Both the position numbers and the translations under genes were made by a program. From Candidatus Acidiferrales bacterium (GTDB lineage Bacteria; Acidobacteriota; Terriglobia; Acidiferrales; UBA7541), in assembly GCA_036004385.1 (NCBI GenBank), contig DASYRO010000402.1, forward strand, positions 1-27,796: a DNA stretch of 27,796 bases. The letters run 5' to 3'. The notes under the pieces are model-generated. The model was not told the origin of the DNA. It saw nothing but the letters and a program-made list of their open reading frames with translations, and searched no databases. How positions within the stretch are numbered: the stretch's first letter is position 1; each line of letters begins with the position of its first letter. Shown one piece after another: positions 3,669 to 19,756 of the stretch.

Positions 3669-5777
3669 TCACGAAGCCACAGCCACTTCCGCCTGCGCTG
3701 TCGGGAGATATACGCTGAAGGTGGATCCCCGCCCCGGTTCGCTATCCACCCAGATGTAACCGGCGGATTGCTTGACGATTCCATAGACAGTGGCCAGCCC
3801 CAGTCCTGTTCCCTTGCCAACGTCTTTAGTCGTAAAGAACGGCTCGAAGATGTGTGCCTTGGTGTCCGCACTCATGCCGCAGCCGGTGTCGCGAACACTC
3901 AACATCACATACGATCCTGTGCGCGCCCCGGGGTGCGTGCCGGCAAAGGCTTCGTCCAGCTCGGCATTGGCCGTTTCAATGGTCAGCGTGCCGCCCTCGG
4001 GCATGGCGTCTCGCGCATTGACGGAAAGGTTCAGGATAATCTGCTCCATCTGCGAGCGGTCGGCCTTGGTCTGACCCAGAGACGCGTCCAGATTGGTGTC
4101 CACGGCGATGTTCTCGCCAATCAAGCGGGTGACCATGCTCTGCACGTCGGCAATCACGTCATTGAGGTTGAGCAGCTCCGGCGCGAGGGTTTGCTTGCGG
4201 CTGAAAGTAAGGAGCTGCCGCGTCAGCGCGGTAGCGCGTTCGGAGGCCTTCTGGATTTCTTCAAGATTTTTGCGCGGCAGCTCGCCCAGGCCTTTTTCCT
4301 CCAGCAACATTTCGCTATACGATTTGATGATCATCAGCAGATTGCTGAGGTCGTGTGCCACTCCGCCCGCGAGCTGGCCCATGGTCTCCATCTTCTGCGC
4401 TTGGCGAATCCCCTCTTCGACCTTGCCGGTGTTCTTCTCGGCATAGAGGGCTTTGTCAGCCCGCTTGAGCAGCTCCGAAGGTTGCTCACCGGGCCGGTGT
4501 TCCGCCCAGCCAGCCGAGAAGGTGATGGGGATCTTAGTTCCCCCGAGATCGACTTCCAGCCCGGTCAGTCGAGTGAGCACAAGAGGCACCTGCCCGGGCA
4601 GGCATTCGGTCAGCAGCAGCATGAATTCATCGCCGCCGATGCGCGCGGCCAGATCGGATGTACGACAGACCTTGTTCAGATGCTTCGCAAATTCGGCCAA
4701 CACCAGATCGCCCGCGGGATGGCCGTGCCGGTCGTTAATCTCCTTGAAGTTGTTGAGGTCGAGAGTCAACAGAGTGAGCGCGTAGGCGCGCCGGTCGGCG
4801 CGCGCGAACTCCACGGCCATGTGCTGCTCGATAAAACGCCGGTTGTACAGGCCGGTCAGGGAATCGCACATGGCCAGTTGATGGAGCTGGGCGTTTTCGA
4901 TGGCGATGGCGCAGTGCACGGAAAGCGCGCGTAGGAAATTGGTGTCCTCGGCGTCGAACGAACCGGAGGCTTTGTTCAGCAGTTGCAGCACGCCGATAAT
5001 ATCATTGCTCTTATCGCGAATGGGCACGCAGAGCAGCGTGCGCGTGCGGTAGCCGAGGCGGCGGTCCACCTCCGGCTCGAAGTGCGGATCCTCGTAGGCA
5101 TCGAGCAGATTGACGGTTTCTCCGGTGCGCGCGACGTGCCCGGCAATGCCCTTGCTCATGGGGATGCGGATTTCCTGCTTCGCCAGGCCCAGGCCGACCA
5201 GCGACCAGATCTCCTCGCGCTCCTTGTCCACCAGAAACATCGTGCCGCGGTCGGCGCCCGTCTGCCGGGTGGCCAACTCGAGGACGATGTTGATGAGCTC
5301 GCCGAGGTCGAGGGGCGAATTGAGCTGCTTGGTGGCTTCCACGATCCTGGAAAGCGTCTCGACGCTGCGGGCAAGAGCGAGCTCGCGCTCGTGCTTCTGT
5401 TGGTGAAGCAGCTGGCGCTGGAGTTCTTCTGCGCGCAGTTGCGAGCTGGCTGCGGTGGTGATCTGTTCGGCCAGCCCTCGGCGCAGCCGCTTAATCAGGA
5501 TCTGCTGGTAGATCAAGTGTGTGTTGAACAGCAGCACCAATCCGACCAGGCCGCGAACTCCCAGGGAAATATTGAGATCGAGGAGCGAATTCCTTACGTT
5601 CGAATCCGCTTTCAACAGCGTGGGCAGCGCGGAGGCCACCACCGCTGCGGTCAGCAAAAGCATAACCACGATGGAAGCCGACCACATCCACCAATCGCGC
5701 CGTTCGAGCTGCTTCAACTTGGCCTGGAGCCCCTGCCAGCTCAGCTCCGCGGCCTCTCGTGTTATCGTCTGTTCCAA
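3669..5777 (-). CDS. Membrane-anchored GAF-GGDEF diguanylate cyclase fused to a CckA-type histidine kinase (HisKA + HATPase_c), no receiver
   Basis: TTG start after GGAGG. Two hydrophobic segments, then GAF. GGDEF domain: DSLTGLYNRR, LDLNNFKEIND, RTSD I-site, RIGGDEF, ADKALYAEK. Kinase: H-box AHDLSNLL, N-box NLSVNARDAM, DTGCGM, FEPFFTTK, GTGLGL. Confidence 0.92.
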   Translation of the reverse strand: MEQTITREAAELSWQGLQAKLKQLERRDWWMWSASIVVMLLLTAAVVASALPTLLKADSNVRNSLLDLNISLGVRGLVGLVLLFNTHLIYQQILIKRLRRGLAEQITTAASSQLRAEELQRQLLHQQKHERELALARSVETLSRIVEATKQLNSPLDLGELINIVLELATRQTGADRGTMFLVDKEREEIWSLVGLGLAKQEIRIPMSKGIAGHVARTGETVNLLDAYEDPHFEPEVDRRLGYRTRTLLCVPIRDKSNDIIGVLQLLNKASGSFDAEDTNFLRALSVHCAIAIENAQLHQLAMCDSLTGLYNRRFIEQHMAVEFARADRRAYALTLLTLDLNNFKEINDRHGHPAGDLVLAEFAKHLNKVCRTSDLAARIGGDEFMLLLTECLPGQVPLVLTRLTGLEVDLGGTKIPITFSAGWAEHRPGEQPSELLKRADKALYAEKNTGKVEEGIRQAQKMETMGQLAGGVAHDLSNLLMIIKSYSEMLLEEKGLGELPRKNLEEIQKASERATALTRQLLTFSRKQTLAPELLNLNDVIADVQSMVTRLIGENIAVDTNLDASLGQTKADRSQMEQIILNLSVNARDAMPEGGTLTIETANAELDEAFAGTHPGARTGSYVMLSVRDTGCGMSADTKAHIFEPFFTTKDVGKGTGLGLATVYGIVKQSAGYIWVDSEPGRGSTFSVYLPTAQAEVAVAS

Positions 5778-5916: not shown

Positions 5917-6426
5917 CTACTTCTGATTGTGCTTGCGGCTGTCCAGGTGCAGCTTTCGAAATTCGGCCAAAATGTACGCGTCCCATCAGCCCTTCTTGAT
6001 TTCTTCCTCCATCGTTTCGAGCGCTGGATCCGGCGACATCGCGCGCTTATAGGGTCGCTCCGTAGTCAGTGCGTCATGGACATCTACGATTGGCAGCACG
6101 CCGGCGGTCATTTGATCGGCCAGTCCGCGGCGCAGTCTCTTAATCAGGATCTGCTGGTAGATCCAGTGTATGTTGAACAGCAGCACCAAGCCCACTAGTC
6201 CGCGAATTCCCTGGGTAATGCTGAGGTCAAGAAGCGTGTCCCATACGTTCGTTTCTTCTTTCAAAAGCGTAGGCAGCGCAGACGCCACTACCGCTGCCGT
6301 CAGCAGGAACATAACCGCGACGGAGGCCCCCCGCAGCCACCCATCGCGCCGCTCGAGCTGCTTCAACCGGGCCTGCAGCGCTTCCCAGCTACCTTCCGCG
6401 GCCGTTTGCATCATCGCGGTATCCAT
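5917..6426 (-). pseudogene. Internally deleted or chimeric gene: TM module like that of 3669..5777 joined to an HD-GYP C-terminal tail, with an in-frame TGA at 5986-5988
   Basis: ATG 6426 after GGAGG. 70/93 aa identical to the TM module of 3669..5777. Then VLPIVDVHDALTTERPYKRAM...KKG*WD aligns to VLQIVDVYDALTTIRPYKRAL...TKGWWD of 6539..7531. Frame continues to TAG at 5917. Confidence 0.8.
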
Positions 6427-6538
6427 GGCCCCTCCGTGCTGGAAACCCAAAATCGAATCTCGAATAACGAGCGTAGGACAGACTTCCAGGTCTGTCCGCT
6501 CGCCGAATCAAACGCTTTGTCGAATCTCCAGACTCTTT

Positions 6539-7531
6539 CTAAGTTCTGACTTCTGATTGCTGACTTCTGTTTTCGACCGAATCCAGAATCAGCTTTTGAA
6601 ATTCCGGAAAAATATTCGGATCCCACCAGCCCTTGGTGACTTCTTGCGCGATGGTGTCCAGCGCCTCCTGCGGTGTAAGGGCCCGCTTGTAGGGACGTAT
6701 CGTGGTCAGCGCGTCGTACACATCCACAATTTGCAGCACGCGCGCGCGCACGGGGATTTGTTCGCCGGCCAGCCCATCCGGATAGCCGGAGCCGTCCATG
6801 CGCTCGTGATGATGGCGGATGATCGGCAGCACCAGGCGGAACGTCTTCAGCGGCGCGCAAATGCGCTCCCCGGTGACGGGATGCTGACGCATGACCACCC
6901 ACTCTTCGGGTGTCAGCGGGCCGGGTTTCAGGAGGATGGCGTCCGGCACGGCCACTTTGCCGATGTCGTGCACGATGCCGGCGCGCCGCAACGCGATAAT
7001 GTGCTCGGAAGGCAGGCCCAGCCGCTCGCCCAACCGCGACGAGTAATCCGACAACCGCTCGCAATGCCCTTCGGTGTAGGGATCTTTTCCTTCGATGCTG
7101 CGCGCCAGTACGAACACCACGGATTCGGCGCGCTCCAGCTCGTCGGTGTAAGCCTTCAAGCTGAGCAGCGAGCGCACGCGCGCCAGCAGTTCATTGCGGT
7201 CCACGGGCTTGCTCAGGAAGTCGTCGGCGCCGGCTTGAATTCCGCGAATGCGGTCTTCCGTGGCCGAAAGACCCGTCACCAGCACCACCGGCGTCAGCCG
7301 CGTTTCCGCATTGGACTTTAGTTGCTGGCACACTTGGATGCCGTCCAGATGCGGCATTTCCACATCCATCAGGACCAGGTCGGGTTGGCTGCGCGCAAAT
7401 TCCGCCAGCGCCGCGCGCCCATCGCTCGCGGTGACCACTTCGTAGCCTTTGGCCTCCAGCATCCGCGTCATCAGCACGCGGATCTCCTCACGGTCATCGG
7501 CGACAAGAATTTTCTCAGCCCGCGTATCCAC
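6539..7531 (-). CDS. Response regulator with REC + HD-GYP domains (RpfG-like cyclic di-GMP phosphodiesterase)
   Basis: KILVADD...DLVLMDVEMP...FLSKP receiver; EGHCERL, VHDIGK, HHHERMDGSGYPDGL, DVYDALTT.RPYK. Start uncertain: GTG 7531 chosen because a TATAAT at 7616-7621 lies inside the longer ORF. Confidence 0.93.
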   Translation of the reverse strand: MDTRAEKILVADDREEIRVLMTRMLEAKGYEVVTASDGRAALAEFARSQPDLVLMDVEMPHLDGIQVCQQLKSNAETRLTPVVLVTGLSATEDRIRGIQAGADDFLSKPVDRNELLARVRSLLSLKAYTDELERAESVVFVLARSIEGKDPYTEGHCERLSDYSSRLGERLGLPSEHIIALRRAGIVHDIGKVAVPDAILLKPGPLTPEEWVVMRQHPVTGERICAPLKTFRLVLPIIRHHHERMDGSGYPDGLAGEQIPVRARVLQIVDVYDALTTIRPYKRALTPQEALDTIAQEVTKGWWDPNIFPEFQKLILDSVENRSQQSEVRT

Positions 7532-7615
7532 GGCCAGGCACCATTGGCGCCACTCCCCCGCTCTTGTGTGTGCTTGCGCGGGTATAGTTAGGTGGAAGAG
7601 AGGGTCGCATCGCCC

Positions 7616-7621
7616 ATTATA
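7616..7621 (-). promoter_or_regulatory. Putative sigma70 -10 box for the HD-GYP gene
   Basis: Perfect TATAAT on the minus strand ~85 nt upstream of GTG 7531; no convincing -35. Confidence 0.4.
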
Positions 7622-7838
7622 CTCTCTGTCTTCCCTGCGCGCTGCTGACAACCTGCGCCCTTGTGTTCTGCTCCGTAACAGTTATTCATCACTGTTCAAC
7701 CGCGAGGCAGGAACTGAACTTCGCTCCATATTTCCATCCGCGATCATCTGTATTCGTTTTGCCGTATCGGACGGTTTGTCTTTTTCGTCACATTCCACTC
7801 GGGACGCTTCGGGGCCACACGCACTCTCGGCTCTGCGT

Positions 7839-7844
7839 TACAAT
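7839..7844 (+). promoter_or_regulatory. Putative -10 box for the BNR/VPS10-repeat gene (very short leader)
   Basis: TACAAT 12 nt before ATG 7857; no Shine-Dalgarno visible. Confidence 0.35.
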
Positions 7845-7856
7845 AGAAATTGGCCC

Positions 7857-9968
7857 ATGCGTCGCCTCGTCCAACTCATTCCTCTCTTCCTCATTTCTTC
7901 TATTCCTCTATCCGGGCAGGTGTGGAAGCCCATGGGCCCGCCGGGGGGCGATGTGCTCACGCTGGCCTCCGATCCCGGCGATCCCAAGCGCATCTATCTG
8001 GGCACCGCCGACGGGCACGTCTTTGGCACCACGGACGGCGGAGAATCCTGGAAAATTCTAGGCCGCGCGGGGCATTCCACGGATGGCGTTATCACCGCAA
8101 TCCTCGTGGACCCGCGCAATGCAAAAACTCTTTTTGCCGCCGCGTGGTCGCGGGAAAGCAACGGCGGTGGCGGCGTGTTCCGTAGCGACGACGCTGGCGT
8201 CACCTGGCGGCGCACCGGCCTCGACGAGCACGCTGTGCGCGCGCTGGCCCAGGCGCCTTCCAACCCGGACGTGCTGGTGGCCGGCGCGCTCGACGGCGTC
8301 TATCGCTCGCTCAATTTCGGCCGCACGTGGCTGCGCATTTCTCCGGAGGAGAGCGAAGAAATCCGCAACCTCGATTCCATCGCCATCGACCCGAAGGACC
8401 CGGACATCATTTATGCCGGCACGTTTCATCTGCCGTGGAAGACATTGAACGGCGGACGCAGTTGGAAATCCATCCATGACGGAATGATTGACGATTCCGA
8501 CGTGATGAGCATTGTTGTGGACCGCACGAATTCCCGCCGCCTTTTTGCCAGCGCCTGTTCGGGCATTTATCGCAGCGACGACGCCGGCGCGGAATGGCGC
8601 AAGATTCAGGGCATTCCCTACGCGGCGCGGCGCACGCACGTGATTCGTCAGGATCCGCATCGCCCGCAGACGGTGTACGCCGCAACGACCGAAGGTCTCT
8701 GGCGCACCAACGATTCGGGCGCGTCCTGGCAGCGGCTCACGCCCGGCGATTGGGTAATAAACGCTCTGGTTCTGGACGCGAAAACGCCCGGGCGGCTGGT
8801 GATGGGCACCGAAAAGCTGGGCGTGATGGTCAGCGAAGATGGCGGCAAAAAATTTCGCGCGGCGAATGAGGGTTTTTATCACCGCCAGATTCTTGCGCTG
8901 GCGCTGGACCGCGATCGGCCGGAGCGCGTCCTCGCCGTCCTGGCCAACGCTCCCGAAACCGTGCTGGCCACCGATGATGCAGGCAGCAACTGGAGGCCGT
9001 TGGGCCCGGGGTTGAAAGCGGAGGCGGTGCGCCGCGTGTATGCTTCGCCCGCTGGATGGCTCGCCGCGCTCGATCGCGGCGGCTTGATGCGCTACGAGGC
9101 CGAGAAATCCGCTTGGCAGCGCATCGGCACCGTCAGCGGAGCGCCGGCATTCAGCTCTGGCCAAGCAGCCGATGATGGCAAGGACAAAGCCGACCAGAAA
9201 TCAGCGAGTCGCAACTCATCTTCTGAGTTCAAGGACAAGCAGGGTCCGAAGTTAGGAACTCGGAGCTTTAGCTCCGACAAAACGCAGAGTACAAAGAGAA
9301 AGGGGCTTCCGCCCCTGAAGCAAAGTGGTCCGCGACCGCTGAATCATATCGTGCTGGACATGGCCTTCACGCGCGAGGCGTGGTACGCGGCCACCGACGA
9401 CGGCTTGCTCGTCTCGCGCGACTCGGGCGCCACGTGGGCGATCACGCCGGTGGGGCCGGTCGTGCTGCCCGCGCGCGCCGTGCACATCTCTGAGGACGCG
9501 AAAAATTTCTGGCTGGTCACCCTGCGCGGCATCGTGTTTTCCGGCGATAGCGGAAATACCTGGGCATGGCATGACCTGCCGTACGAAACCGGCGGCGCGC
9601 TGCGAATTGATGCAGCGGGAGAAAAAACGCTTCTCGCCACGACCGAAAAAGGCCTGTTCATTTCTCGCGATGGCGGAGGCACGTGGAAACAAGCAGCCTA
9701 CGGTCTGCCCCAGGCCCCCATTCAGGACCTCGCCATCGTGGGAGATATTTTCCTCGTCTCCATGCAAACGCAGGGCCTGTACATCTCCTACGATCGCGGG
9801 GCAACATGGATGCGCATCGAAGGCACGCTGGCCGAGGGGCGCTTTCCGGTGGTCACCGCGCGCGAAACAGCCTCCATTGTGTATGCGGCGTCGTCCACCG
9901 AGGGCCTCTATGCTGTCGAACTGCGCGAAAAAGTGGCCACGGCTCCGCCTCCCGGAAAAGCTCCCTAG
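7857..9968 (+). CDS. Secreted BNR/Asp-box (VPS10/sortilin-like, YCF48-like) beta-propeller protein
   Basis: Signal-like MRRLVQLIPLFLISSIPLSG. Repeated Asp-box motifs: TTDGGESW, SDDAGVTW, SLNFGRTW, TLNGGRSW, SDDAGAEW, TNDSGASW, SEDGGKKF, SRDSGATW, SRDGGGTW, SYDRGATW. Confidence 0.88.
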   Translation: MRRLVQLIPLFLISSIPLSGQVWKPMGPPGGDVLTLASDPGDPKRIYLGTADGHVFGTTDGGESWKILGRAGHSTDGVITAILVDPRNAKTLFAAAWSRESNGGGGVFRSDDAGVTWRRTGLDEHAVRALAQAPSNPDVLVAGALDGVYRSLNFGRTWLRISPEESEEIRNLDSIAIDPKDPDIIYAGTFHLPWKTLNGGRSWKSIHDGMIDDSDVMSIVVDRTNSRRLFASACSGIYRSDDAGAEWRKIQGIPYAARRTHVIRQDPHRPQTVYAATTEGLWRTNDSGASWQRLTPGDWVINALVLDAKTPGRLVMGTEKLGVMVSEDGGKKFRAANEGFYHRQILALALDRDRPERVLAVLANAPETVLATDDAGSNWRPLGPGLKAEAVRRVYASPAGWLAALDRGGLMRYEAEKSAWQRIGTVSGAPAFSSGQAADDGKDKADQKSASRNSSSEFKDKQGPKLGTRSFSSDKTQSTKRKGLPPLKQSGPRPLNHIVLDMAFTREAWYAATDDGLLVSRDSGATWAITPVGPVVLPARAVHISEDAKNFWLVTLRGIVFSGDSGNTWAWHDLPYETGGALRIDAAGEKTLLATTEKGLFISRDGGGTWKQAAYGLPQAPIQDLAIVGDIFLVSMQTQGLYISYDRGATWMRIEGTLAEGRFPVVTARETASIVYAASSTEGLYAVELREKVATAPPPGKAP

Positions 9969-12683: not shown

Positions 12684-12776
12684 ATGGGGAGAGGTGTGCG
12701 GCGCGCGATTGAGTTCGTCGTGGCCATCAGCACGGCGCTTCTCTTCAGCTATCTCATCCTGCGTTCACCCTGGTAG
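12684..12776 (+). CDS. Putative small single-pass membrane peptide (30 aa, or 26 aa from GTG 12696)
   Basis: MGRGVRRAIEFVVAISTALLFSYLILRSPW*. GGGGAGAGG is an RBS for GTG 12696. Basic N-terminus plus ~18-aa hydrophobic run. Ends 7 nt before the kinase ATG. Confidence 0.55.
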   Translation: MGRGVRRAIEFVVAISTALLFSYLILRSPW

Positions 12777-12783
12777 GCCGGTG

Positions 12784-15282
12784 ATGGGAATCAAAAAGTG
12801 GTTGCGCGCGTGGTCCAGCGAACGCGACGCCGCGGCGACGCTCGCCACGTTTTCGGGTGTCGCCGTCGCGGGGGACTCGCCTGAGCGTTTGCAGGAATTA
12901 GCCGCCGAGGAACTGCTGAAGATCACCGAAGCGGATCGCGCGGGAGTGTGGCTGGAGTCGGACATGTCGCAAATTCTGCGCGGTTCCGTCGTCGATGTGC
13001 GGGGAGTCCCGGCTCCGGTGGAATGGCAACAGTTAGACATCTCCGCTTTCCCCTGGCGACACGCCTTGCGGACCTCGACGCCGCTGATGGCCGACGTGCA
13101 CGAAGACGCGCACAATGGCGCGGCGGGAGAATCGCCATCCGCTGTGCCTCCCGTGCTGGCGGAAATGCGCAGCGCTGTGTGGTGGCCGGTGCGGTCCGCG
13201 GGCCGCGCAGCGGGAGTGGCCATGCTGGCTTTTCGCGACAGCCATCAAAGCGTATCCGAAGCGGCTGCGCCATTTGTCTGGACTTTGCTCAATCAACTGG
13301 CGCTGGCTCACTCCGCCCATCGCACGAAAACTGAGCTAGCACGCCTGCAATGGGATTGTGCGGAGCGCGAAGAAACCCAGGCAGCGCGTAAACGGGAGGA
13401 GCGGTCCGCAGTCGAAAACAGCCATCCCTCTGCGGCGGAGCGGTCAGGAGAACGCCACGGGCAGCCCGCGGGACCGCAACTCGCGGAAGAGCTACGCGCG
13501 GTAATGGAAGCGGTCGATAGCGGCGTGCTCCTCCTCGACGCGTCGGGAAAAGTTCGTTCCTCGAACGGGCAGTTTCTGCGCCTTTTTGGACTCGAGGAAA
13601 ACGCAACGGCTACGTTCAGGGGCCGTCAGATCCTCGAGCTGTACGAGGCGCTCGCACCGCTCATTCGCGACCCGGATACGTTTTCCCGCCGCTGGCGGGA
13701 ACTGCCGCTCCTCGGCAACTCCACGGCGTGGGACGAGGTGGAACTCCTCAGCCCAGCCGGGCGCGTGCTGCAACGCTTTTCGCGGCCCGTGTCCGACGCG
13801 CAGGGTCGGCGCGTGGGCTGGCTGGAGCTGTACCGCGAACGAAGCGCACACGCGCCTCCGCACATGCCCATGCTGCAAACGGAGAAAATGGCCGCCATCG
13901 GCCAGCTTGTCTCCGGAATCGCGCACGAACTGAACAATCCGCTCACCAGCATCATGGGCTACGCGCAACTTCTGCTCGCGCGGATGCCCGCCGGCCGCGC
14001 CGCGGGCACCGAACGCCGTCGGGAAAGCGATGCCACTCGCAATATGTTCCGCGAGGTGGAGAAAATTTATTTGGAGGCGGAACGCGCCGGGCGCATTGTG
14101 AACAATCTGCTTCTGTTCGCGCGCAGCGGACGCGGCGAGCGCCGCGCCGTGGATCTCAATGAAATCGTAGAGCGCACGCTGGCGCTGCGCAGCTATGAGC
14201 TGAGAATTGAAAACATACAGCTCGAGCTGCAGCTCGACCGCGAACTGCCGCCGACGCTGGCCGATCCTCATCAAGTGCAGCAGGTGGTGCTGAATCTCCT
14301 GGTGAATGCCGAGCAGGCCATCCTCGAAAGTCATGCCGCCGACCACTCCGACGCCGCTGGCGGCGCGGAGCTGGGACACATACGGATTCGCTCGTTCTCA
14401 TTGCCGGAGGCGAACCCGCCGCGCGTGGCTCTGGAAATTTCCGATAGCGGCCCGGGAGTGCCTCCGCAGCACATTTCGCGCCTTTTCGATCCATTTTTTA
14501 CCACCAAGCCGGTCGGACTGGGCACCGGCCTGGGCCTTTCCATTGCCTATGGAATCGTTCACGACCACGGCGGCGACATCTACCTGATGAATTCCGCGAG
14601 AATTTCCCCCGGAGCGCCCTCCCTGGGCGGCGCATCCTTTGTTGTCGAACTGCCCGTTCTCAGCGCCGTCGAGGCCGTGGTTCAACCGTGCGAAACAGAG
14701 GAAGCGGCAAGCGTCGAGCCGCCCCGAGAAGCCGAGCCGGTGCGGGTGGAGAAAAAGCATTCCGCGTCTCGCGTCCGTGCGCGCCGCGGCAGCATCCTGG
14801 TCGTGGAAGACGAGCCGACCGTCGCACAACTTGTCGCCGATGTGTTGAAGGACGAAGGCTATGACGTGGACGTGGTGCTGGACAGCCGCGAAGGTCTCGC
14901 ACGAGTGGCGCGGTTCGGATACGACCTGATTATCTGCGACCTGCGCATGCCGCGGATTGACGGCCGGGCATTCTATCGGTCGCTGGTGCGCAGCGGCCAT
15001 CCCGCGCAGTTGCGGCTGCTCTTCATCACCGGCGACACGCTTTCCCCGCGCACGCTGGAATTCCTGGACCGCACGGGGCTCCCTTGCCTGGCCAAACCCT
15101 TTCTGGTGGAGGAACTGAAAAGCATCGTTGCGCATACCCTGGATTTACTGCGCAAGCCGCGCAACGGTTCCGCGCCGAAACGCAGAGTCACCGATTTTGA
15201 GGATCCCGCCGAAATGGCGCCGCACTCCGGTGAGGTTCCCCCTTCGCTGGACCGGCGGGCTGAAGAATTGAGGAAACAATGA
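12784..15282 (+). CDS. Cytoplasmic hybrid sensor histidine kinase (GAF-like, PAS-like, HisKA, HATPase_c, REC)
   Basis: H-box GIAHELNNPLTSI, NLLVNAEQAI, DSGPGV, FDPFFTTK, GTGLGLSI; receiver ILVVEDE...DLIICDLRMP...LAKPF; no TM helix visible. Start trimmed to ATG 12784. Confidence 0.93.
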   Translation: MGIKKWLRAWSSERDAAATLATFSGVAVAGDSPERLQELAAEELLKITEADRAGVWLESDMSQILRGSVVDVRGVPAPVEWQQLDISAFPWRHALRTSTPLMADVHEDAHNGAAGESPSAVPPVLAEMRSAVWWPVRSAGRAAGVAMLAFRDSHQSVSEAAAPFVWTLLNQLALAHSAHRTKTELARLQWDCAEREETQAARKREERSAVENSHPSAAERSGERHGQPAGPQLAEELRAVMEAVDSGVLLLDASGKVRSSNGQFLRLFGLEENATATFRGRQILELYEALAPLIRDPDTFSRRWRELPLLGNSTAWDEVELLSPAGRVLQRFSRPVSDAQGRRVGWLELYRERSAHAPPHMPMLQTEKMAAIGQLVSGIAHELNNPLTSIMGYAQLLLARMPAGRAAGTERRRESDATRNMFREVEKIYLEAERAGRIVNNLLLFARSGRGERRAVDLNEIVERTLALRSYELRIENIQLELQLDRELPPTLADPHQVQQVVLNLLVNAEQAILESHAADHSDAAGGAELGHIRIRSFSLPEANPPRVALEISDSGPGVPPQHISRLFDPFFTTKPVGLGTGLGLSIAYGIVHDHGGDIYLMNSARISPGAPSLGGASFVVELPVLSAVEAVVQPCETEEAASVEPPREAEPVRVEKKHSASRVRARRGSILVVEDEPTVAQLVADVLKDEGYDVDVVLDSREGLARVARFGYDLIICDLRMPRIDGRAFYRSLVRSGHPAQLRLLFITGDTLSPRTLEFLDRTGLPCLAKPFLVEELKSIVAHTLDLLRKPRNGSAPKRRVTDFEDPAEMAPHSGEVPPSLDRRAEELRKQ

Positions 15283-16106
15283 AAGCTGTGAACCAACTGT
15301 CTTCCATTTCGTACTCCGGTCGCCTCGCGGGCCTCCGGCGAGATTGTGACCCGCGCGTTGTCCTGCTGGTCAGCACCGATACGGCGCTCAGTCACCGGCT
15401 GGTTCGCGCTCTCAACGGCAACGGTAATCTTTCCTTAGCGGACGAGACGCCCGCTTACCAGGTGCCCGTGGCCACGAGTGTCGCCCAGGCACGCTCCTGC
15501 ATCGGCCGTACCGCGCCAGACGTGATTTTGCTCGACGAGAGCATCCACGCTCCGAATCTGCTTACGTATCTGGTGGAGGACTTGGCGAATATTGCGCCGG
15601 TGATTTTTCTCGCCGCGCCGGAAAACCTGGCGTGGTGGTGCAGACAGAAAGAATCTGCCACGCTCGTGGCCGAGGGCCGCGTGGAATGTGTGGCCCGCGA
15701 TGGCGACTTCGTGCCCCTGGCCGCTCGGCTGATTATGCGCCACGCAGGCCCATCCCCGGAAAATTTGGGACCGCACAGCCTATCCATGCTGGCCTCCGCA
15801 GTGAGCGGCGGCGAGGCGCTTGCCGAAGAAATCCCGCTGGATTTCGGAGAAGTCCTGCGCCACGAGGTGAACAATCCGCTGACGGGAATTCTCGGCAATG
15901 CCGAGCTTTTGCTTTCGCGGCGCGACCGCCTGTCCGCGGACATGGTCGAGAGGTTGGAGATCATCGCCGATCTCGCCATCCGCCTGCGCGAAACCGTCCG
16001 CCGTCTGAGCAACGCGCTGGTGCGCCGTCCCGAAGCTTCGGGAAGCATTCCCGGGCACGCGCCCGGTGATCTTTCCTCCTCCCACCGCCACCGCCCGCCG
16101 ACGTAG
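15279..16106 (+). CDS. Degenerate receiver + histidine phospho-acceptor (HisKA/DHp) domain, no ATPase domain
   Basis: ATGA overlap with the kinase stop. PDVILLDES receiver-like core lacking the usual acidic pair and Lys. LRHEVNNPLTGILGNAELL H-box. Protein ends with no N/G1/F/G2 boxes. Confidence 0.82.
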   Translation: MKAVNQLSSISYSGRLAGLRRDCDPRVVLLVSTDTALSHRLVRALNGNGNLSLADETPAYQVPVATSVAQARSCIGRTAPDVILLDESIHAPNLLTYLVEDLANIAPVIFLAAPENLAWWCRQKESATLVAEGRVECVARDGDFVPLAARLIMRHAGPSPENLGPHSLSMLASAVSGGEALAEEIPLDFGEVLRHEVNNPLTGILGNAELLLSRRDRLSADMVERLEIIADLAIRLRETVRRLSNALVRRPEASGSIPGHAPGDLSSSHRHRPPT

Positions 16107-16412: not shown

Positions 16413-18092
16413 ATGCCTGCAGCGGCACGCTTGCGTGTTTTGGAACCCGGCGGCACCGAGCGTCAGGTGCCCGTCCAGAATACTCCCTTCACCATCGGAC
16501 GGCAGAAGGGCAACGAACTCACGCTCAGCGACACGCGTATCAGCCGCCTGCAAGCCAAGATTGATCTCACCGACGGAAAATATGTTCTCGAGGACCTGCA
16601 AAGCCGTCATGGCACGTTTGTCAACGGACAAAAAATCGAGGCGGCGCATGAACTGAAGCCGCGGGACACGATTGAATTCGGGGTCCCGGATTCGTTCCGG
16701 CTGGTTTTCGAGCAGGGCGAAGAAACCAATATTTCGGAGTTAGTGAGCCGCGTCGAGGCTGGGCCGGCCACTCCGGCGACTTCGCGCGAACTCTACCACC
16801 TCGGCGTACTGCTGGAAGTCGTGCGCGTGATGCACACCAGCCTCGCGCTCGAAGATTTACTGACTTCCGTGGTGGACGCGGCCATCGCCGTGACGCACAC
16901 GGAGCGCGCCGTGCTGCTGTTGCGCCCGCCGGAAGGCGCGGAGGGCGACCTGGTGCAGAGCGTGGCGCGCGACCATCGCCACGGCACGCTCGATCCGAAA
17001 GAAATGCAGATTTCCTCCAGCATCTTGAAGCAGGTGGTGAAGTCGAGGCGCGAGCTGATTGTCAGCGATCCGGGCGACGCACTGGGCGCGCTGGACCGCC
17101 GCCAACAGGACAGCATGGCGCGGCTGGAACTGCGCACGGTGATCGCCATCCCCCTGGAAAAAATGCCCGTGCTGGGTTCCTCGGACACAACCGTGTACGG
17201 AAAGCCGGCGGAACTGCTCGGCGTGCTTTACCTGGACAGCCGCGCGGTGGGCAGCGCGTTCTCCGATCTCGACCGCCAGACGCTGCGCGCGCTGGCGCTG
17301 GAAGCGGCCACCGTGATCGAAAACGCGCGCCTGTTCGCCGCGTCGCGGGAAAAAGAGCGCCTCGAACACGAGATGGCCATCGCTTCGGAAATCCAGCAGA
17401 CGCTTCTGCCGAAAACATTTCCCGAATCGAAAGAGTTCAGCATCACCGGACTGAACATCGCCTGCCAGTCCATCGGCGGAGATTATTTTGACGCCATCGG
17501 GCTTCCCGGCGGGCGCTGCGGCGTGGTGGTGGCGGACGTCTCCGGCAAAGGAATTCCCGCGGCGCTGCTGGCGTCCATGCTGCAGGGAGTTTTTTCCGCC
17601 ACGGCGGGAATGGATATCGCGCTGCACACCATCGGCGCGCGCGTGAACAAATATCTCTGCGAGCGCACGGGCGATGACCGCTACGCCACGCTGTTTTATT
17701 CCGTCCTGGATCCCAGCGGGCATCTGGAATACGTCAACGCCGGACACGTGTCTCCGCTGGTGCGCACGACGATGGGCCAGGTGTACACGCTGGCCTCGGA
17801 TAATTTCCCGCTGGGCATGTTTGATTTTGCGGAATACCACACGGGCCGCGCGCAGCTTCAACCCGGGGATTTTCTCATCATCTATACCGACGGATTTTCG
17901 GAAGCGCACAACATGCGCAACGACATGTTCACGGAAACGGGCTTGCGCGACATCCTGCGCGCGTTTAGCGGCGCCACCGCCCAGGAACTTTCCGCCGCCA
18001 TTCAGGCCGGCGTGCGACAGTTCACCGGCGGTGCGCCCCAGTCGGACGATATGACTTTGGTCGTAGTACACTACCGGGGCTCCGGCACATGA
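16413..18092 (+). CDS. FHA-GAF-SpoIIE/PP2C (RsbU-like) protein phosphatase
   Basis: FHA: FTIGRQ, ISRLQA, DLQSRHGTFVNG. GAF: LLGVLYLDS...IENARL. Linker ERLEHEMAIASEIQ. PP2C: GGDYFD, ADVSGKG, VNAGH, YTDGFSE, SDDMT. Confidence 0.93.
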   Translation: MPAAARLRVLEPGGTERQVPVQNTPFTIGRQKGNELTLSDTRISRLQAKIDLTDGKYVLEDLQSRHGTFVNGQKIEAAHELKPRDTIEFGVPDSFRLVFEQGEETNISELVSRVEAGPATPATSRELYHLGVLLEVVRVMHTSLALEDLLTSVVDAAIAVTHTERAVLLLRPPEGAEGDLVQSVARDHRHGTLDPKEMQISSSILKQVVKSRRELIVSDPGDALGALDRRQQDSMARLELRTVIAIPLEKMPVLGSSDTTVYGKPAELLGVLYLDSRAVGSAFSDLDRQTLRALALEAATVIENARLFAASREKERLEHEMAIASEIQQTLLPKTFPESKEFSITGLNIACQSIGGDYFDAIGLPGGRCGVVVADVSGKGIPAALLASMLQGVFSATAGMDIALHTIGARVNKYLCERTGDDRYATLFYSVLDPSGHLEYVNAGHVSPLVRTTMGQVYTLASDNFPLGMFDFAEYHTGRAQLQPGDFLIIYTDGFSEAHNMRNDMFTETGLRDILRAFSGATAQELSAAIQAGVRQFTGGAPQSDDMTLVVVHYRGSGT

Positions 18093-19756
18093 AGAATAAT
18101 CCCACGTCGACAACTGCCGCCAAGCAGTCGGGTACCAGCCTGGCCCAGCTGGCAGACGCGCTGGCCGCCCTGAGCCTGGAAGCCGCTCCGGAAACGTTGG
18201 CGCAGCAGACCGTGGAAACAGTCACCGCCCATCTCGGCGCCTCCGGCGCGCGGCTGTGGCGCATGGTGGATGGGAAGCCCGCCATGTGGAAGCACGCGGG
18301 CGCCATGCCCGGCGCAGACGAGGCCGCAGCGGCCAGGGCGTTCAGCGGATTAGTTTCTTCCAGTGGGACGTCCGACTGGTTTTTTGCAGGCGCAGGCAAT
18401 AGCCACGCCGGGATGGTTCTGGAGACTTCAGCTCCGAAGCCCATGAGTGCGGAGGCGCGCAGCGTGCTGGCGCTTTTCGCGAGATTCGCTGCCTCCGCGC
18501 TGGCCGGTGTGGACCACCGGCGCACTATTGATACACTTTCCAGCATCGTTGAAGCCACCAAGCAACTGAATTCGACGCTGGACCTCGGAGAACTCATCAA
18601 CATCGTGCTGCAACTGGCCACGCGGCAGACCGGCGCAGACCGCGGCACGATGTTTCTGGTGGACAAGGAACACGAAGAAATCTGGTCGCTGGTGGGGCTG
18701 GGTCTGGCGCAACAGGAAATCCGCATCCCCATGAGCAAGGGCATCTCCGGACACGTCGCGCGCACCGGAGAGACGGTGAACCTGCTGGATGCCTACGACG
18801 ATCCGCGGTTCGAGCCGGACGTGGATCGCCGCCTGGGCTACCGCACGCGCACGCTGCTGTGCCTGCCGATTCGCAACAAGGCCAACGACGTCGTCGGCGT
18901 GCTGCAACTGTTGAACAAAGCGACTGGCCCGTTCAACAGCGAGGACACGATGTTCCTGCAGGCGCTTTCCGTGCATTGCGCCATCGCCATCGAAAATGCG
19001 CAGCTCCACCGCGAACTCATCCACAAGCAGAAACTGGAGCGCGACCTGGCGCTGGCGCGCAGCATCCAGCGCGGCTTGCTGCCGGAACATCCGCCCACCA
19101 TCGAGGGGTTCGACATCGTCGTTTCACACAAGCCGACGCAGATGGTCGGCGGCGATTATTACGATTTCATCCCGCTCAGCTCGGAAGCGCTGCTGTTTGT
19201 CATTTCCGACGTGGAAGGGAAGGGCGTGGCCTCCGCGCTGGTGATGGCCAACCTGCAAGCCACGCTGCGCGCGCTCGTGGTACACCTGCATTCGCTGGAG
19301 CGGATCGTGGCGTCGGTGAACGACATGATCCTGGCGGATACCCGCGCGCAAAAATATATGAGCATGTTCGTGGGGCTGCTCGACCAGCGCAACCGCACGT
19401 TCCACTACATCAACGCGGGTCACGTGCCGCCCGCCGTGGTGCGCGCCAACGGTGAGCATGTGTTCTTGCGCGAAGGCGGCATGGTCGTGGGAATTTTCCC
19501 CGGCGTGGCATATGAACGCGGCTATCTCAAGCTCGAGCCTGGCGACGTCTTCGTCGGGTGCACGGACGGCATCACCGAAGCCATGGACGTGCAATCTAAC
19601 GAGTACGGCGTGGAACGCCTGGTCGAAACTATCACCCGCGAACGCAACTCGCCCGCGGAACGCATCGTGGAAACCGTCCTTAATGAGGTGGACCGCTTCT
19701 CCCGCGGCGGGCCCCACGAAGACGACCGTATCATCATGATCCTCAAGGCGCTGTAG
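18089..19756 (+). CDS. Degenerate GAF-GAF-SpoIIE/PP2C (RsbU-like) protein phosphatase
   Basis: ATGA overlap with the previous gene. GAF with LLCLPI...GVLQLLNK..F...D. Linker KLERDLALARSIQ. PP2C: GGDYYD, SDVEGKG, INAGH, TDGITE, EDD. Confidence 0.93.
   Translation: MKNNPTSTTAAKQSGTSLAQLADALAALSLEAAPETLAQQTVETVTAHLGASGARLWRMVDGKPAMWKHAGAMPGADEAAAARAFSGLVSSSGTSDWFFAGAGNSHAGMVLETSAPKPMSAEARSVLALFARFAASALAGVDHRRTIDTLSSIVEATKQLNSTLDLGELINIVLQLATRQTGADRGTMFLVDKEHEEIWSLVGLGLAQQEIRIPMSKGISGHVARTGETVNLLDAYDDPRFEPDVDRRLGYRTRTLLCLPIRNKANDVVGVLQLLNKATGPFNSEDTMFLQALSVHCAIAIENAQLHRELIHKQKLERDLALARSIQRGLLPEHPPTIEGFDIVVSHKPTQMVGGDYYDFIPLSSEALLFVISDVEGKGVASALVMANLQATLRALVVHLHSLERIVASVNDMILADTRAQKYMSMFVGLLDQRNRTFHYINAGHVPPAVVRANGEHVFLREGGMVVGIFPGVAYERGYLKLEPGDVFVGCTDGITEAMDVQSNEYGVERLVETITRERNSPAERIVETVLNEVDRFSRGGPHEDDRIIMILKAL

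Follow-up and report, generated by a model that had tools for sequence, protein, structure and literature searches.

A cyclic-nucleotide-type GAF domain shared by a PP2C phosphatase and a membrane GGDEF-histidine kinase in an acidobacterial genus, probably transferred together with a linker helix

Background

In bacterial signalling, the mechanism by which output enzymes of unrelated kinds come under the control of a single sensor domain is an open question. Known cases include the Anabaena proteins CyaB1 and CyaB2, which bind cyclic adenosine monophosphate (cAMP) with tandem GAF domains (PDB 1YKD) and have a cyclase as output, and the cAMP-activated proteins Lcd1 of Leptospira (PDB 5W10) and GacB of Myxococcus, in which a GAF is joined via a helix directly to the N-terminus of a GGDEF domain. 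Other GAF proteins, namely the tandem GAF-PPM protein RsbZ of C. difficile, the cyanobacterial GAF-PP2C protein HltA and OsaC of S. coelicolor, are phosphatases composed of one or more GAFs, a coiled-coil linker and an RsbU-type PP2C domain (PMC12143880; PMC9430166), and it has been proposed that common linker mechanics allow PAS, REC and GAF sensors to be exchanged between PPM, histidine kinase and GGDEF outputs (PMC12143880). Here we describe a stretch of DNA of 27,796 nucleotides (nt) from Candidatus Acidiferrales bacterium (assembly GCA_036004385.1, contig DASYRO010000402.1, positions 1-27,796, forward strand; hereafter the window), in which nearly the same GAF domain is found in a membrane-bound GGDEF-histidine kinase, encoded by gene A, and in a PP2C phosphatase, encoded by gene B. 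The genome carrying the window (G000) is a metagenome-assembled genome (MAG) of 557 contigs with a completeness of 71.6%, which we compared with 40 related genomes (G001, G002 and so forth). The Acidobacteriota are an abundant soil phylum with almost no characterised signalling proteins.

Results and discussion

The shared GAF domain

A first-pass annotation of the window, made from the sequence alone, had counted 139 identical residues among the 159 amino acids of the two GAF domains, and the same figure was obtained when we recomputed it from the translations. BLASTP aligns the pair without gaps over a slightly longer stretch (140/164 identical, E=2e-97), at a nucleotide identity of 84-85%. 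Both copies are assigned to the GAF family by full-length matches (PF01590/PF13185; E=1e-19 for A and 2e-22 for B), and an AlphaFold2 (AF2) model of the domain shows the order of helices and strands expected of the GAF fold, in which a six-stranded sheet lies against a bundle of alpha1, alpha2 and alpha5 (pLDDT 85), and retrieves more than 400 GAF matches in the PDB with Foldseek. The borders of the shared region are sharp, with amino acid identity dropping to background (0-10%) within one 10-codon block on each side, and the domains beyond them are unrelated, as had been noted before, Pfam recognising GGDEF, HisKA and HATPase_c in A and SpoIIE/PP2C in B. The 24 amino acid differences between the two copies are mostly conservative and are placed in loops and at helix ends, with Ala76/Ser as the single change close to the phosphate-binding helix. 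When the whole MAG was searched for further copies, only these two exceeded 40% identity, the next GAFs showing 26-38%.

Substitution rates were estimated by the Nei-Gojobori method over 164 codons (492 nt). The two copies differ at 79 nucleotides, distributed over the first, second and third codon positions as 16/8/55, which corresponds to 50.5 synonymous (Sd) and 28.5 nonsynonymous (Nd) differences, a dS of 0.60, a dN of 0.081 and a dN/dS of 0.137 (bootstrap 0.08-0.22). The codon alignment of the whole domain therefore shows the same pattern as an earlier hand count of 32 codons, in which most differences were synonymous. Together with the excess of third-position changes and a dN/dS below 1 also within the A-type and within the B-type GAFs, this demonstrates that the pair is an old duplicate kept by purifying selection and not an assembly duplicate. 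In a MAG as fragmented as this one, a single gene might have been seen twice by assembly or binning, or a chimeric contig might have been formed, but neither would produce 79 differences in 492 nt with such a bias in codon position; both architectures moreover recur in independent assemblies and metagenomes, and the whole neighbourhood is syntenic in G003. We therefore regard an artefact of this kind as having practically no chance of being correct.

Origin of the GAF in the membrane kinase

There are many proteins without a GAF that correspond to A, at 54-61% identity, in the transmembrane (TM) module and in the GGDEF-HisKA-HATPase core. They comprise 510-690 amino acids (aa), with or without a receiver domain, and the motifs LERRDWW, YQQ..KRLRR and RAEE as well as the two hydrophobic helices of A recur in GAF-less homologues of 531-690 aa. 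These GAF-less proteins read straight through the site at which the GAF is found in A (...KRLRR.LAEQ...RAEEFH-QLAMLDPLTGLYNRR); at the same site, proteins of the A type read ...RAEEL(H/Q)-[179 aa]-QLAM.D.LTGLYNRR. In the 179-aa insert, a 20-aa helix precedes the 159-aa GAF, and both ends of the insert abut an (E/Q)LH triplet. The region containing this helix (residues 118-140 of A) matches the linker that follows the GAF in B (residues 305-327) at 14/23 positions (BLASTP, E=8e-6), and the same linker pattern also precedes the PP2C domain of the phosphatase encoded by gene C, immediately upstream of B. These comparisons indicate that the GAF passed, together with a PP2C-type linker, from the phosphatase lineage into the membrane GGDEF-kinase, and that this happened in one genus; this origin had not been seen in the first-pass annotation.

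The distribution of the two types is consistent with such a transfer. GAF-PP2C proteins of the B type, usually in tandem with C, occur in 23 of the 40 related genomes, across two families, with GAF identities of 44-92%. Proteins of the A type were found among these genomes only in the genus of the window, as a full-length gene in G003 and as partial genes at contig ends in G001 and G002. In a collection of 5.8 billion proteins, GAF-bearing A-types form about 12 clusters (73-77% identity) whose junctions are identical, and the names of the database relatives point to Acidobacteriota (Acidoferrales/Terriglobales-type). Because insertion site and linker are the same in all A-types, a single insertion event is the simplest account of their origin. 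No gene of the A type was found in G004 (93% complete) with either query, which may date the insertion after the split of G004, a part of the tree that is unresolved.

A maximum-likelihood (ML) tree of 43 GAFs, an analysis already proposed by the first-pass annotation, separates the two families with full support (100/100) and places all A-type GAFs within the genus-level B clade (88/80). The A-type GAF evolves about three times faster than that of B: for the pair G000-G003, where dS is 0.51 for both genes, dN/dS amounts to 0.27 between the A copies and to 0.08 between the B copies. Only three positions are diagnostic of the A clade with respect to the B clade of the genus, two of them at the junctions; thus there is no sign of an adaptive burst after the transfer.

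Ongoing gene conversion, i.e. concerted evolution, would be a different way of maintaining the similarity between A and B. The two genes are located 13-22 kb apart on one contig in both G000 and G003, the GAF of A in G000 is closer to those of B-types (81-88%) than to those of other A-types (77-81%), and the within-genome pair of G003 (L035, L008; contig C61) contains a run of 64 identical nucleotides. The asymmetry in similarity is, however, explained by the roughly threefold faster evolution of A. In addition, the GAF of B in G000 groups with the B of another species (99/94) and not with the A of its own genome, the dS of 0.60 between A and B within the genome is not below the values between genomes (0.32-0.65), and the longest identical run in G000 measures 32 nt (permutation P=0.18). 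On topology, the comparison of dS values and the permutation test on runs, recent gene conversion in G000 was rejected, and conversion as the cause of the overall similarity is very improbable. The run in G003, which is found among 79 differences and exceeds those of all other A-B pairs, may itself be a short gene-conversion tract.

What the GAF may bind

In a phmmer search of the PDB, the first match to the shared GAF is CyaB2 (E=4e-49), both of whose GAFs align, followed by PDE5A, the GAF-HD-GYP protein PmGH (120 bits in one stretch), PDE2A, PDE10A and PDE6, with the top matches spanning E values from 1e-49 to 1e-27. Foldseek with the AF2 model retrieves PmGH (40% identity, E=5e-19), CyaB2, PDE10A, PDE2A, PDE5A and the cAMP complex of Lcd1. 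Among the 120 best matches in the protein collection, the nearest GAFs outside PP2C and A-type hosts are those of GAF-GAF-PAS-adenylate cyclases (42-52% identity). Sequence and predicted fold alike place the shared GAF in the lineage of GAFs that bind cyclic nucleotide monophosphates (cNMPs).

The ligand pocket points in the same direction. In the second GAF of CyaB2 (GAF-B), cAMP is contacted by R291, T293, I308, T309, D356 and N359, in the case of T309 via the backbone and in the case of N359 via water (PMC4411481). The equivalent residues in the GAFs of A and B are R41, T43, V58, G59, D102 and L105, respectively, the two proteins of G000 being identical at all six positions. We scored conservation across 93 B-type proteins and the alignable A-types: the equivalents R, T, V and D are retained in 93/93, 87/93, 90/93 and 93/93 of the B-types and in all alignable A-types, and the motifs GIAG and GYRT are near-invariant across the 93 relatives. 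The NKFDE signature was also read as before, i.e. as NK-x4-F-x3-D followed by Thr in both copies (N132, K133, F138 and D142, with Thr at 143), whereas the 93 B-types carry Glu (75 proteins), Thr (12), Ser (3) or Gln (3) at its last position. NKFDE makes no contact with the ligand, yet it is required for binding in phosphodiesterases (PDEs) (PMC11977230), so the missing Glu counts somewhat against cNMP binding.

Since the contact equivalents are the same in A and B and the domain belongs to the cNMP lineage, the best reading is that both proteins respond to one ligand, which is probably a cyclic nucleotide. The earlier suggestion of a common ligand, possibly a cyclic nucleotide, is thus partly supported, namely by lineage and pocket, and weakened with regard to the NKFDE signature. 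A cyclic nucleotide is most likely the ligand of the GAF in both proteins, and the CyaB-type relatives together with the retention of the Thr favour cAMP. A choice between cAMP and cyclic guanosine monophosphate (cGMP) cannot be made from sequence, and the determinants of this specificity in GAFs are unclear (PMC4411481).

A source of cyclic nucleotides is predicted in the genome. The only class III cyclase found in this incomplete MAG is joined to two FHA domains (contig C49, L056:2136-3536(+)); G000 also encodes a single protein with a cNMP_binding domain, and congeners of G000 encode a CHASE2-cyclase. The occurrence of FHA domains both in this cyclase and in the FHA-GAF-PP2C protein encoded by C suggests that recognition of phospho-Thr links the cyclase and the phosphatase modules. 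Across genomes, a class III cyclase was detected in 22 of the 24 with a B-type GAF and in 11 of the 17 without one.

Predicted activities of the two proteins

The catalytic motifs of both host proteins (Table 1) are intact. The GGDEF domain of A matches its Pfam profile almost completely (PF00990, E=3e-39, profile positions 1-159/161) and is a predicted diguanylate cyclase; the protein reads RTSD-LAARI-GGDEF, so that the GGDEF motif is intact and an RxxD I-site lies five residues upstream. HisKA (PF00512, E=7e-11) and HATPase_c (PF02518, E=8e-23) follow, with the motifs AHDLSN, NLSVNARDA, DTGCGM and GKGTGLGL legible, which characterise A as a predicted histidine kinase, its core being CckA-like as judged by the names of homologues. 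Pfam returned nothing meaningful for the N-terminal 140 aa. The combination of a GGDEF domain joined directly upstream of a CckA-like HisKA-HATPase core, behind a two-TM module and with or without a C-terminal receiver, defines a widespread acidobacterial family of dozens of clusters (positions 3669-4874(-) of the window; P0018-P0086; 49-61% identity), which is apparently uncharacterised.

The phosphatase domain of B (PF07228, SpoIIE, E=2e-44, profile positions 3-190/192) is a predicted PPM phosphatase in which the metal-binding Asp motifs GGDYYD, DVEGKG, TDG and a C-terminal DD can be read. For the N-terminal 150 aa of B, no Pfam family was found; Foldseek with an AF2 model of this region returned almost exclusively GAFs, with weak scores (best E=2.8e-4, TM-score 0.55-0.68). 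With a GAF-like fold predicted in this position, B has a layout similar to that of RsbZ and other tandem-GAF PPM phosphatases (PMC12143880). Genes C and B are translationally coupled (ATGA overlap), and the tandem is conserved in the family of the window and in another family of the order. C carries a GAF that is unrelated to the shared one. In one related genome (G026:C42:9163-9635, L030) the B-type GAF extends over two frames in adjacent open reading frames (ORFs; query residues 2-76 and 76-159), which points either to a frameshift or break in the B orthologue or to an error in sequencing. In partner-switching systems of the RsbU-RsbV-RsbW type, the genes for the STAS anti-anti-sigma factor and the RsbW-like kinase are usually linked to that of the phosphatase. 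Elsewhere in G000 there are at least six genes for single-domain STAS proteins and at least three HATPase_c_2 (RsbW-like) genes; within the 27.8-kb window no STAS or RsbW-like gene was found, and no predicted substrate of B is encoded beside it.

Table 1. Features of the window considered in this study (residue numbers refer to the respective protein)
Feature	Coordinates	Strand	Description
Gene A	3669..5777	-	702 aa; two TM helices, linker, GAF, GGDEF, HisKA, HATPase_c, assigned by Pfam and sequence reading
A residues 1-117	5427..5777	-	two-TM module and start of signalling helix, common to GAF-less TM-GGDEF-kinase relatives
A residues 121-140	5358..5417	-	first part of the 179-aa insert; PP2C-type (RsbU-like) linker helix, N-terminal to GAF
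A residues 141-299	4881..5357	-	cNMP-type GAF
A residues 302-452	4422..4874	-	GGDEF diguanylate cyclase domain (predicted); helix resumes with QLAM..LTGLYNRR right after the insert
A residues 466-694	3696..4382	-	HisKA and HATPase_c core
Gene B	18089..19756	+	555 aa; degenerate GAF-like N-domain, cNMP-type GAF, linker, SpoIIE/PP2C; probable donor lineage of the GAF
B residues 1-144	18089..18520	+	reduced GAF-like fold, predicted (AF2 pLDDT 82)
B residues 149-307	18533..19009	+	cNMP-type GAF, second copy
B residues 309-328	19013..19072	+	linker helix from GAF to PP2C; homologous to the pre-GAF helix of A
Gene C	16413..18092	+	559 aa; FHA, a different GAF, PP2C
154-aa ORF	5986..6450	-	chimeric ORF
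REC-HD-GYP gene	6539..7651	-	longest ORF
BNR/sortilin-repeat gene	7449..9968	+	longest ORF, divergent from the REC-HD-GYP gene
Kinase pair	12694..16106	+	hybrid GAF?/PAS-HisKA-HATPase-REC kinase and 275-aa protein (HisKA, no ATPase domain)

Proposed mechanism

According to the comparisons above, the signalling helix of a pre-existing TM-GGDEF-HisKA-HATPase membrane protein acquired, in frame and between ...RAEE(L/F)H and QLAM..LTGLYNRR, a 179-aa cassette derived from a B-type gene. A arose in this way around the origin of one genus, and purifying selection has maintained both copies since. We propose that a single cyclic nucleotide, most likely cAMP provided by the class III cyclases of the genome, would bind to both GAFs and rearrange the helices at their ends, which would alter the dimeric linker helix in its register or crossing. 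Such a chain of events has precedents, as the GAF of PmGH and its long alpha5 helix dimerise in parallel and bear the output domain (PMC4159591), and control through a coiled-coil linker has been proposed for PPM, histidine kinase and GGDEF outputs (PMC12143880). In B, the PP2C domain would be switched towards a phospho-STAS, phospho-Thr or other phosphoprotein substrate, and in A the synthesis of cyclic diguanylate (c-di-GMP), the autokinase activity or both would be switched. In sum, Ser/Thr dephosphorylation, c-di-GMP synthesis and histidine kinase signalling would be coupled to one input. We estimate the probability of this explanation as a whole, i.e. transfer of the cassette from the B lineage to A, retention of both copies and gating of both by one cNMP, most likely cAMP, at about 0.6.

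Several observations weigh against this explanation, some of which concern the history of the cassette. The order of linker and GAF in A is permuted with respect to the GAF-linker order in B, which requires an intermediate with tandem [GAF+linker] units or another donor; we infer that a B-type gene with a tandem [GAF+linker] duplication donated one of its two units, but no such tandem copy was found among the 40 related genomes or the 120 best database matches. The A-types form one clade in the ML tree with weak support (56/86), the base of the genus being a polytomy, and the genome carrying the window is incomplete (72%). Other observations concern the ligand. The position equivalent to N359 of CyaB2 is Leu, the final Glu of NKFDE is replaced by Thr in both A and B of the genus of the window, and alanine substitutions in this motif abolish cGMP binding by PDE2 (cited in PMC11977230). 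The Arg equivalent to R291 of CyaB2 is also present in the cGMP-specific PDE5, and for the GAF of PmGH, the closest solved relative, no ligand has been reported (PMC4159591). Finally, no class III cyclase was found in the near-complete genomes G020 and G023, both of which encode a B-type protein, and the association between B-type GAFs and cyclases is weak (Fisher p=0.049, with genomes that are non-independent) and lends minor support.

Some of these observations would be readily understood if the same duplication had taken place and the GAF sensed a molecule other than a cNMP, or served only for dimerisation or the coupling of helices. The Thr at the end of NKFDE in the genus of the window, the lack of a described ligand for the nearest structure, the two genomes with a B-type protein and no detected class III cyclase, and the many kinds of ligands bound by GAF domains in general (PMC4411481) all fit this alternative. 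It is at odds with the strong and specific similarity to cNMP-binding GAFs, with the near-invariance of the CyaB2-contact equivalents and of GIAG and GYRT across the 93 relatives, with the full NKFDE signature in 75 of them and with the presence of cyclases in the genus, and we consider it unlikely, although it is the most serious competitor of cNMP gating.

It is also conceivable that the shared GAF brings A and B together in heterodimers, in addition to gating by a ligand, so that the phosphatase and the cyclase-kinase would regulate each other directly. In accordance with this idea, A and B differ little, and mostly by conservative changes, in alpha1 and alpha5, the helices from which the PmGH dimer is built (PMC4159591); at 85% identity, homo- and heterodimers are inseparable by structure prediction. 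The effectors, however, are homodimeric, as GGDEF activity needs two domains and the dimerisation and histidine phosphotransfer (DHp) region of HisKA is dimeric, and a mixed dimer would disable them. PPM domains are likewise predicted to dimerise via the linker (PMC12143880), and A is anchored in the membrane. Heterodimers are less plausible because each host has dimeric effector domains of its own, and we consider them improbable.

Gating of both proteins by one cyclic nucleotide thus remains our preferred explanation, and it has a more far-reaching version. The cassette could be a 'plug-and-play' cAMP module that works in front of PPM, GGDEF and histidine kinase domains with essentially no adaptation of the sensor, making cAMP, in this acidobacterial genus, a master input that sets partner-switching, the level of c-di-GMP and a phosphorelay simultaneously. 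We put this forward tentatively, as a possibility that we would sooner doubt than accept; if true, it would represent direct natural evidence for the coiled-coil-linker model of sensor exchange.

Gene neighbourhood

The order of a PKD-OmpA gene, A, a sigma54 activator, a hybrid kinase, C and B is the same in G000 and G003, with about 21 kb between A and B in G003 vs 13.6 kb in G000, and the neighbourhood of B is not syntenic in G004. Next to A lies a chimeric 154-aa ORF, residues ~9-113 of which are a paralogue of the TM module of A (68% tblastn identity over residues 1-109 of A; 56% in BLASTP over 140). Its residues 116-154 are 64% identical to residues 303-341 of the neighbouring REC-HD-GYP protein and contain neither an HD nor a GYP motif. 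The ORF has the appearance of a remnant left at the junction of a segmental duplication that spanned the end of the HD-GYP gene and the start of A. In G003 the 154-aa ORF is absent beside A. The REC-HD-GYP protein was considered as a cognate regulator of the kinase A, which was not supported, as its gene is not beside A in the syntenic region of G003 either; the neighbourhood formed by the two is therefore lineage-specific. At their 5' ends, the longest ORFs of the REC-HD-GYP gene and of the BNR/sortilin-repeat gene, which is divergent from it, have ~200 nt in common, so that at least one of the real start codons must be located further downstream. Just upstream of C and B and beside the sigma54 activator, the genes for the hybrid kinase and the 275-aa protein show an ATGA-type overlap; this pair may constitute a phosphorelay.

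Comparison with known systems

The locus offers a natural test set for the question of how one sensor can serve different outputs, as it combines an order-wide GAF-PP2C donor, many GAF-less TM-GGDEF-kinases and a product that has been kept for roughly dS 0.5-0.6, with exact junctions available for probing the interchangeability of linkers among PPM, histidine kinase and GGDEF proteins. It also draws attention to cAMP, which may feed into the c-di-GMP and partner-switching networks of Acidobacteriota and has so far not been studied in this role.

With CyaB1 and CyaB2, the shared GAF has the motifs ADR-x-T, KGIAG, GYRT and LLNK in common. Binding of cAMP is predicted for A and B, the outputs are a GGDEF-kinase and a PP2C instead of a cyclase, and a single canonical GAF takes the place of the tandem GAFs of the CyaB proteins, the first GAF-like domain of B being degenerate. 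The position of the GAF in A, directly N-terminal to GGDEF, is that seen in Lcd1 and GacB, and the cAMP-bound GAF of Lcd1 is found among the Foldseek matches with E ~6e-12, at an identity of only 23-26%. For GacB both activation by cAMP and inhibition through the I-site have been shown (bioRxiv 10.1101/600031), and A also possesses an RxxD I-site. Unlike these two proteins, A is anchored in the membrane, continues after the GGDEF domain with a complete HisKA-HATPase unit and carries a GAF that appears to be a recent transplant from a phosphatase. The closest solved GAF structure is that of PmGH, a c-di-GMP phosphodiesterase of Persephonella marina (GAF-HD-GYP; PDB 4MCW), which has a different output domain.

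The plan of B is the same as in RsbZ, HltA and OsaC, but these phosphatases have no known cyclic-nucleotide ligand, whereas the GAF of B is of the cNMP type, and B differs from them also in being paired with an FHA-GAF-PP2C paralogue. With respect to the proposed exchangeability of sensors (PMC12143880), A and B present the same GAF (85% identity) in front of a PPM and of a GGDEF-histidine kinase, in the latter inserted within the linker helix. This represents a recent event in nature for which the donor lineage and GAF-less recipients are extant, and purifying selection points to function after the transfer.

Control of effectors by cNMP-binding GAFs and the shuffling of signalling domains are already known, and A and B do not constitute a new class of system. 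What is new is that acidobacterial PP2C phosphatases of a widespread but uncharacterised family carry a GAF of the cNMP type, and the recent transplantation of this GAF with a linker into the signalling helix of a TM-GGDEF-kinase, in a setting where the donor, naive recipients and the product coexist.

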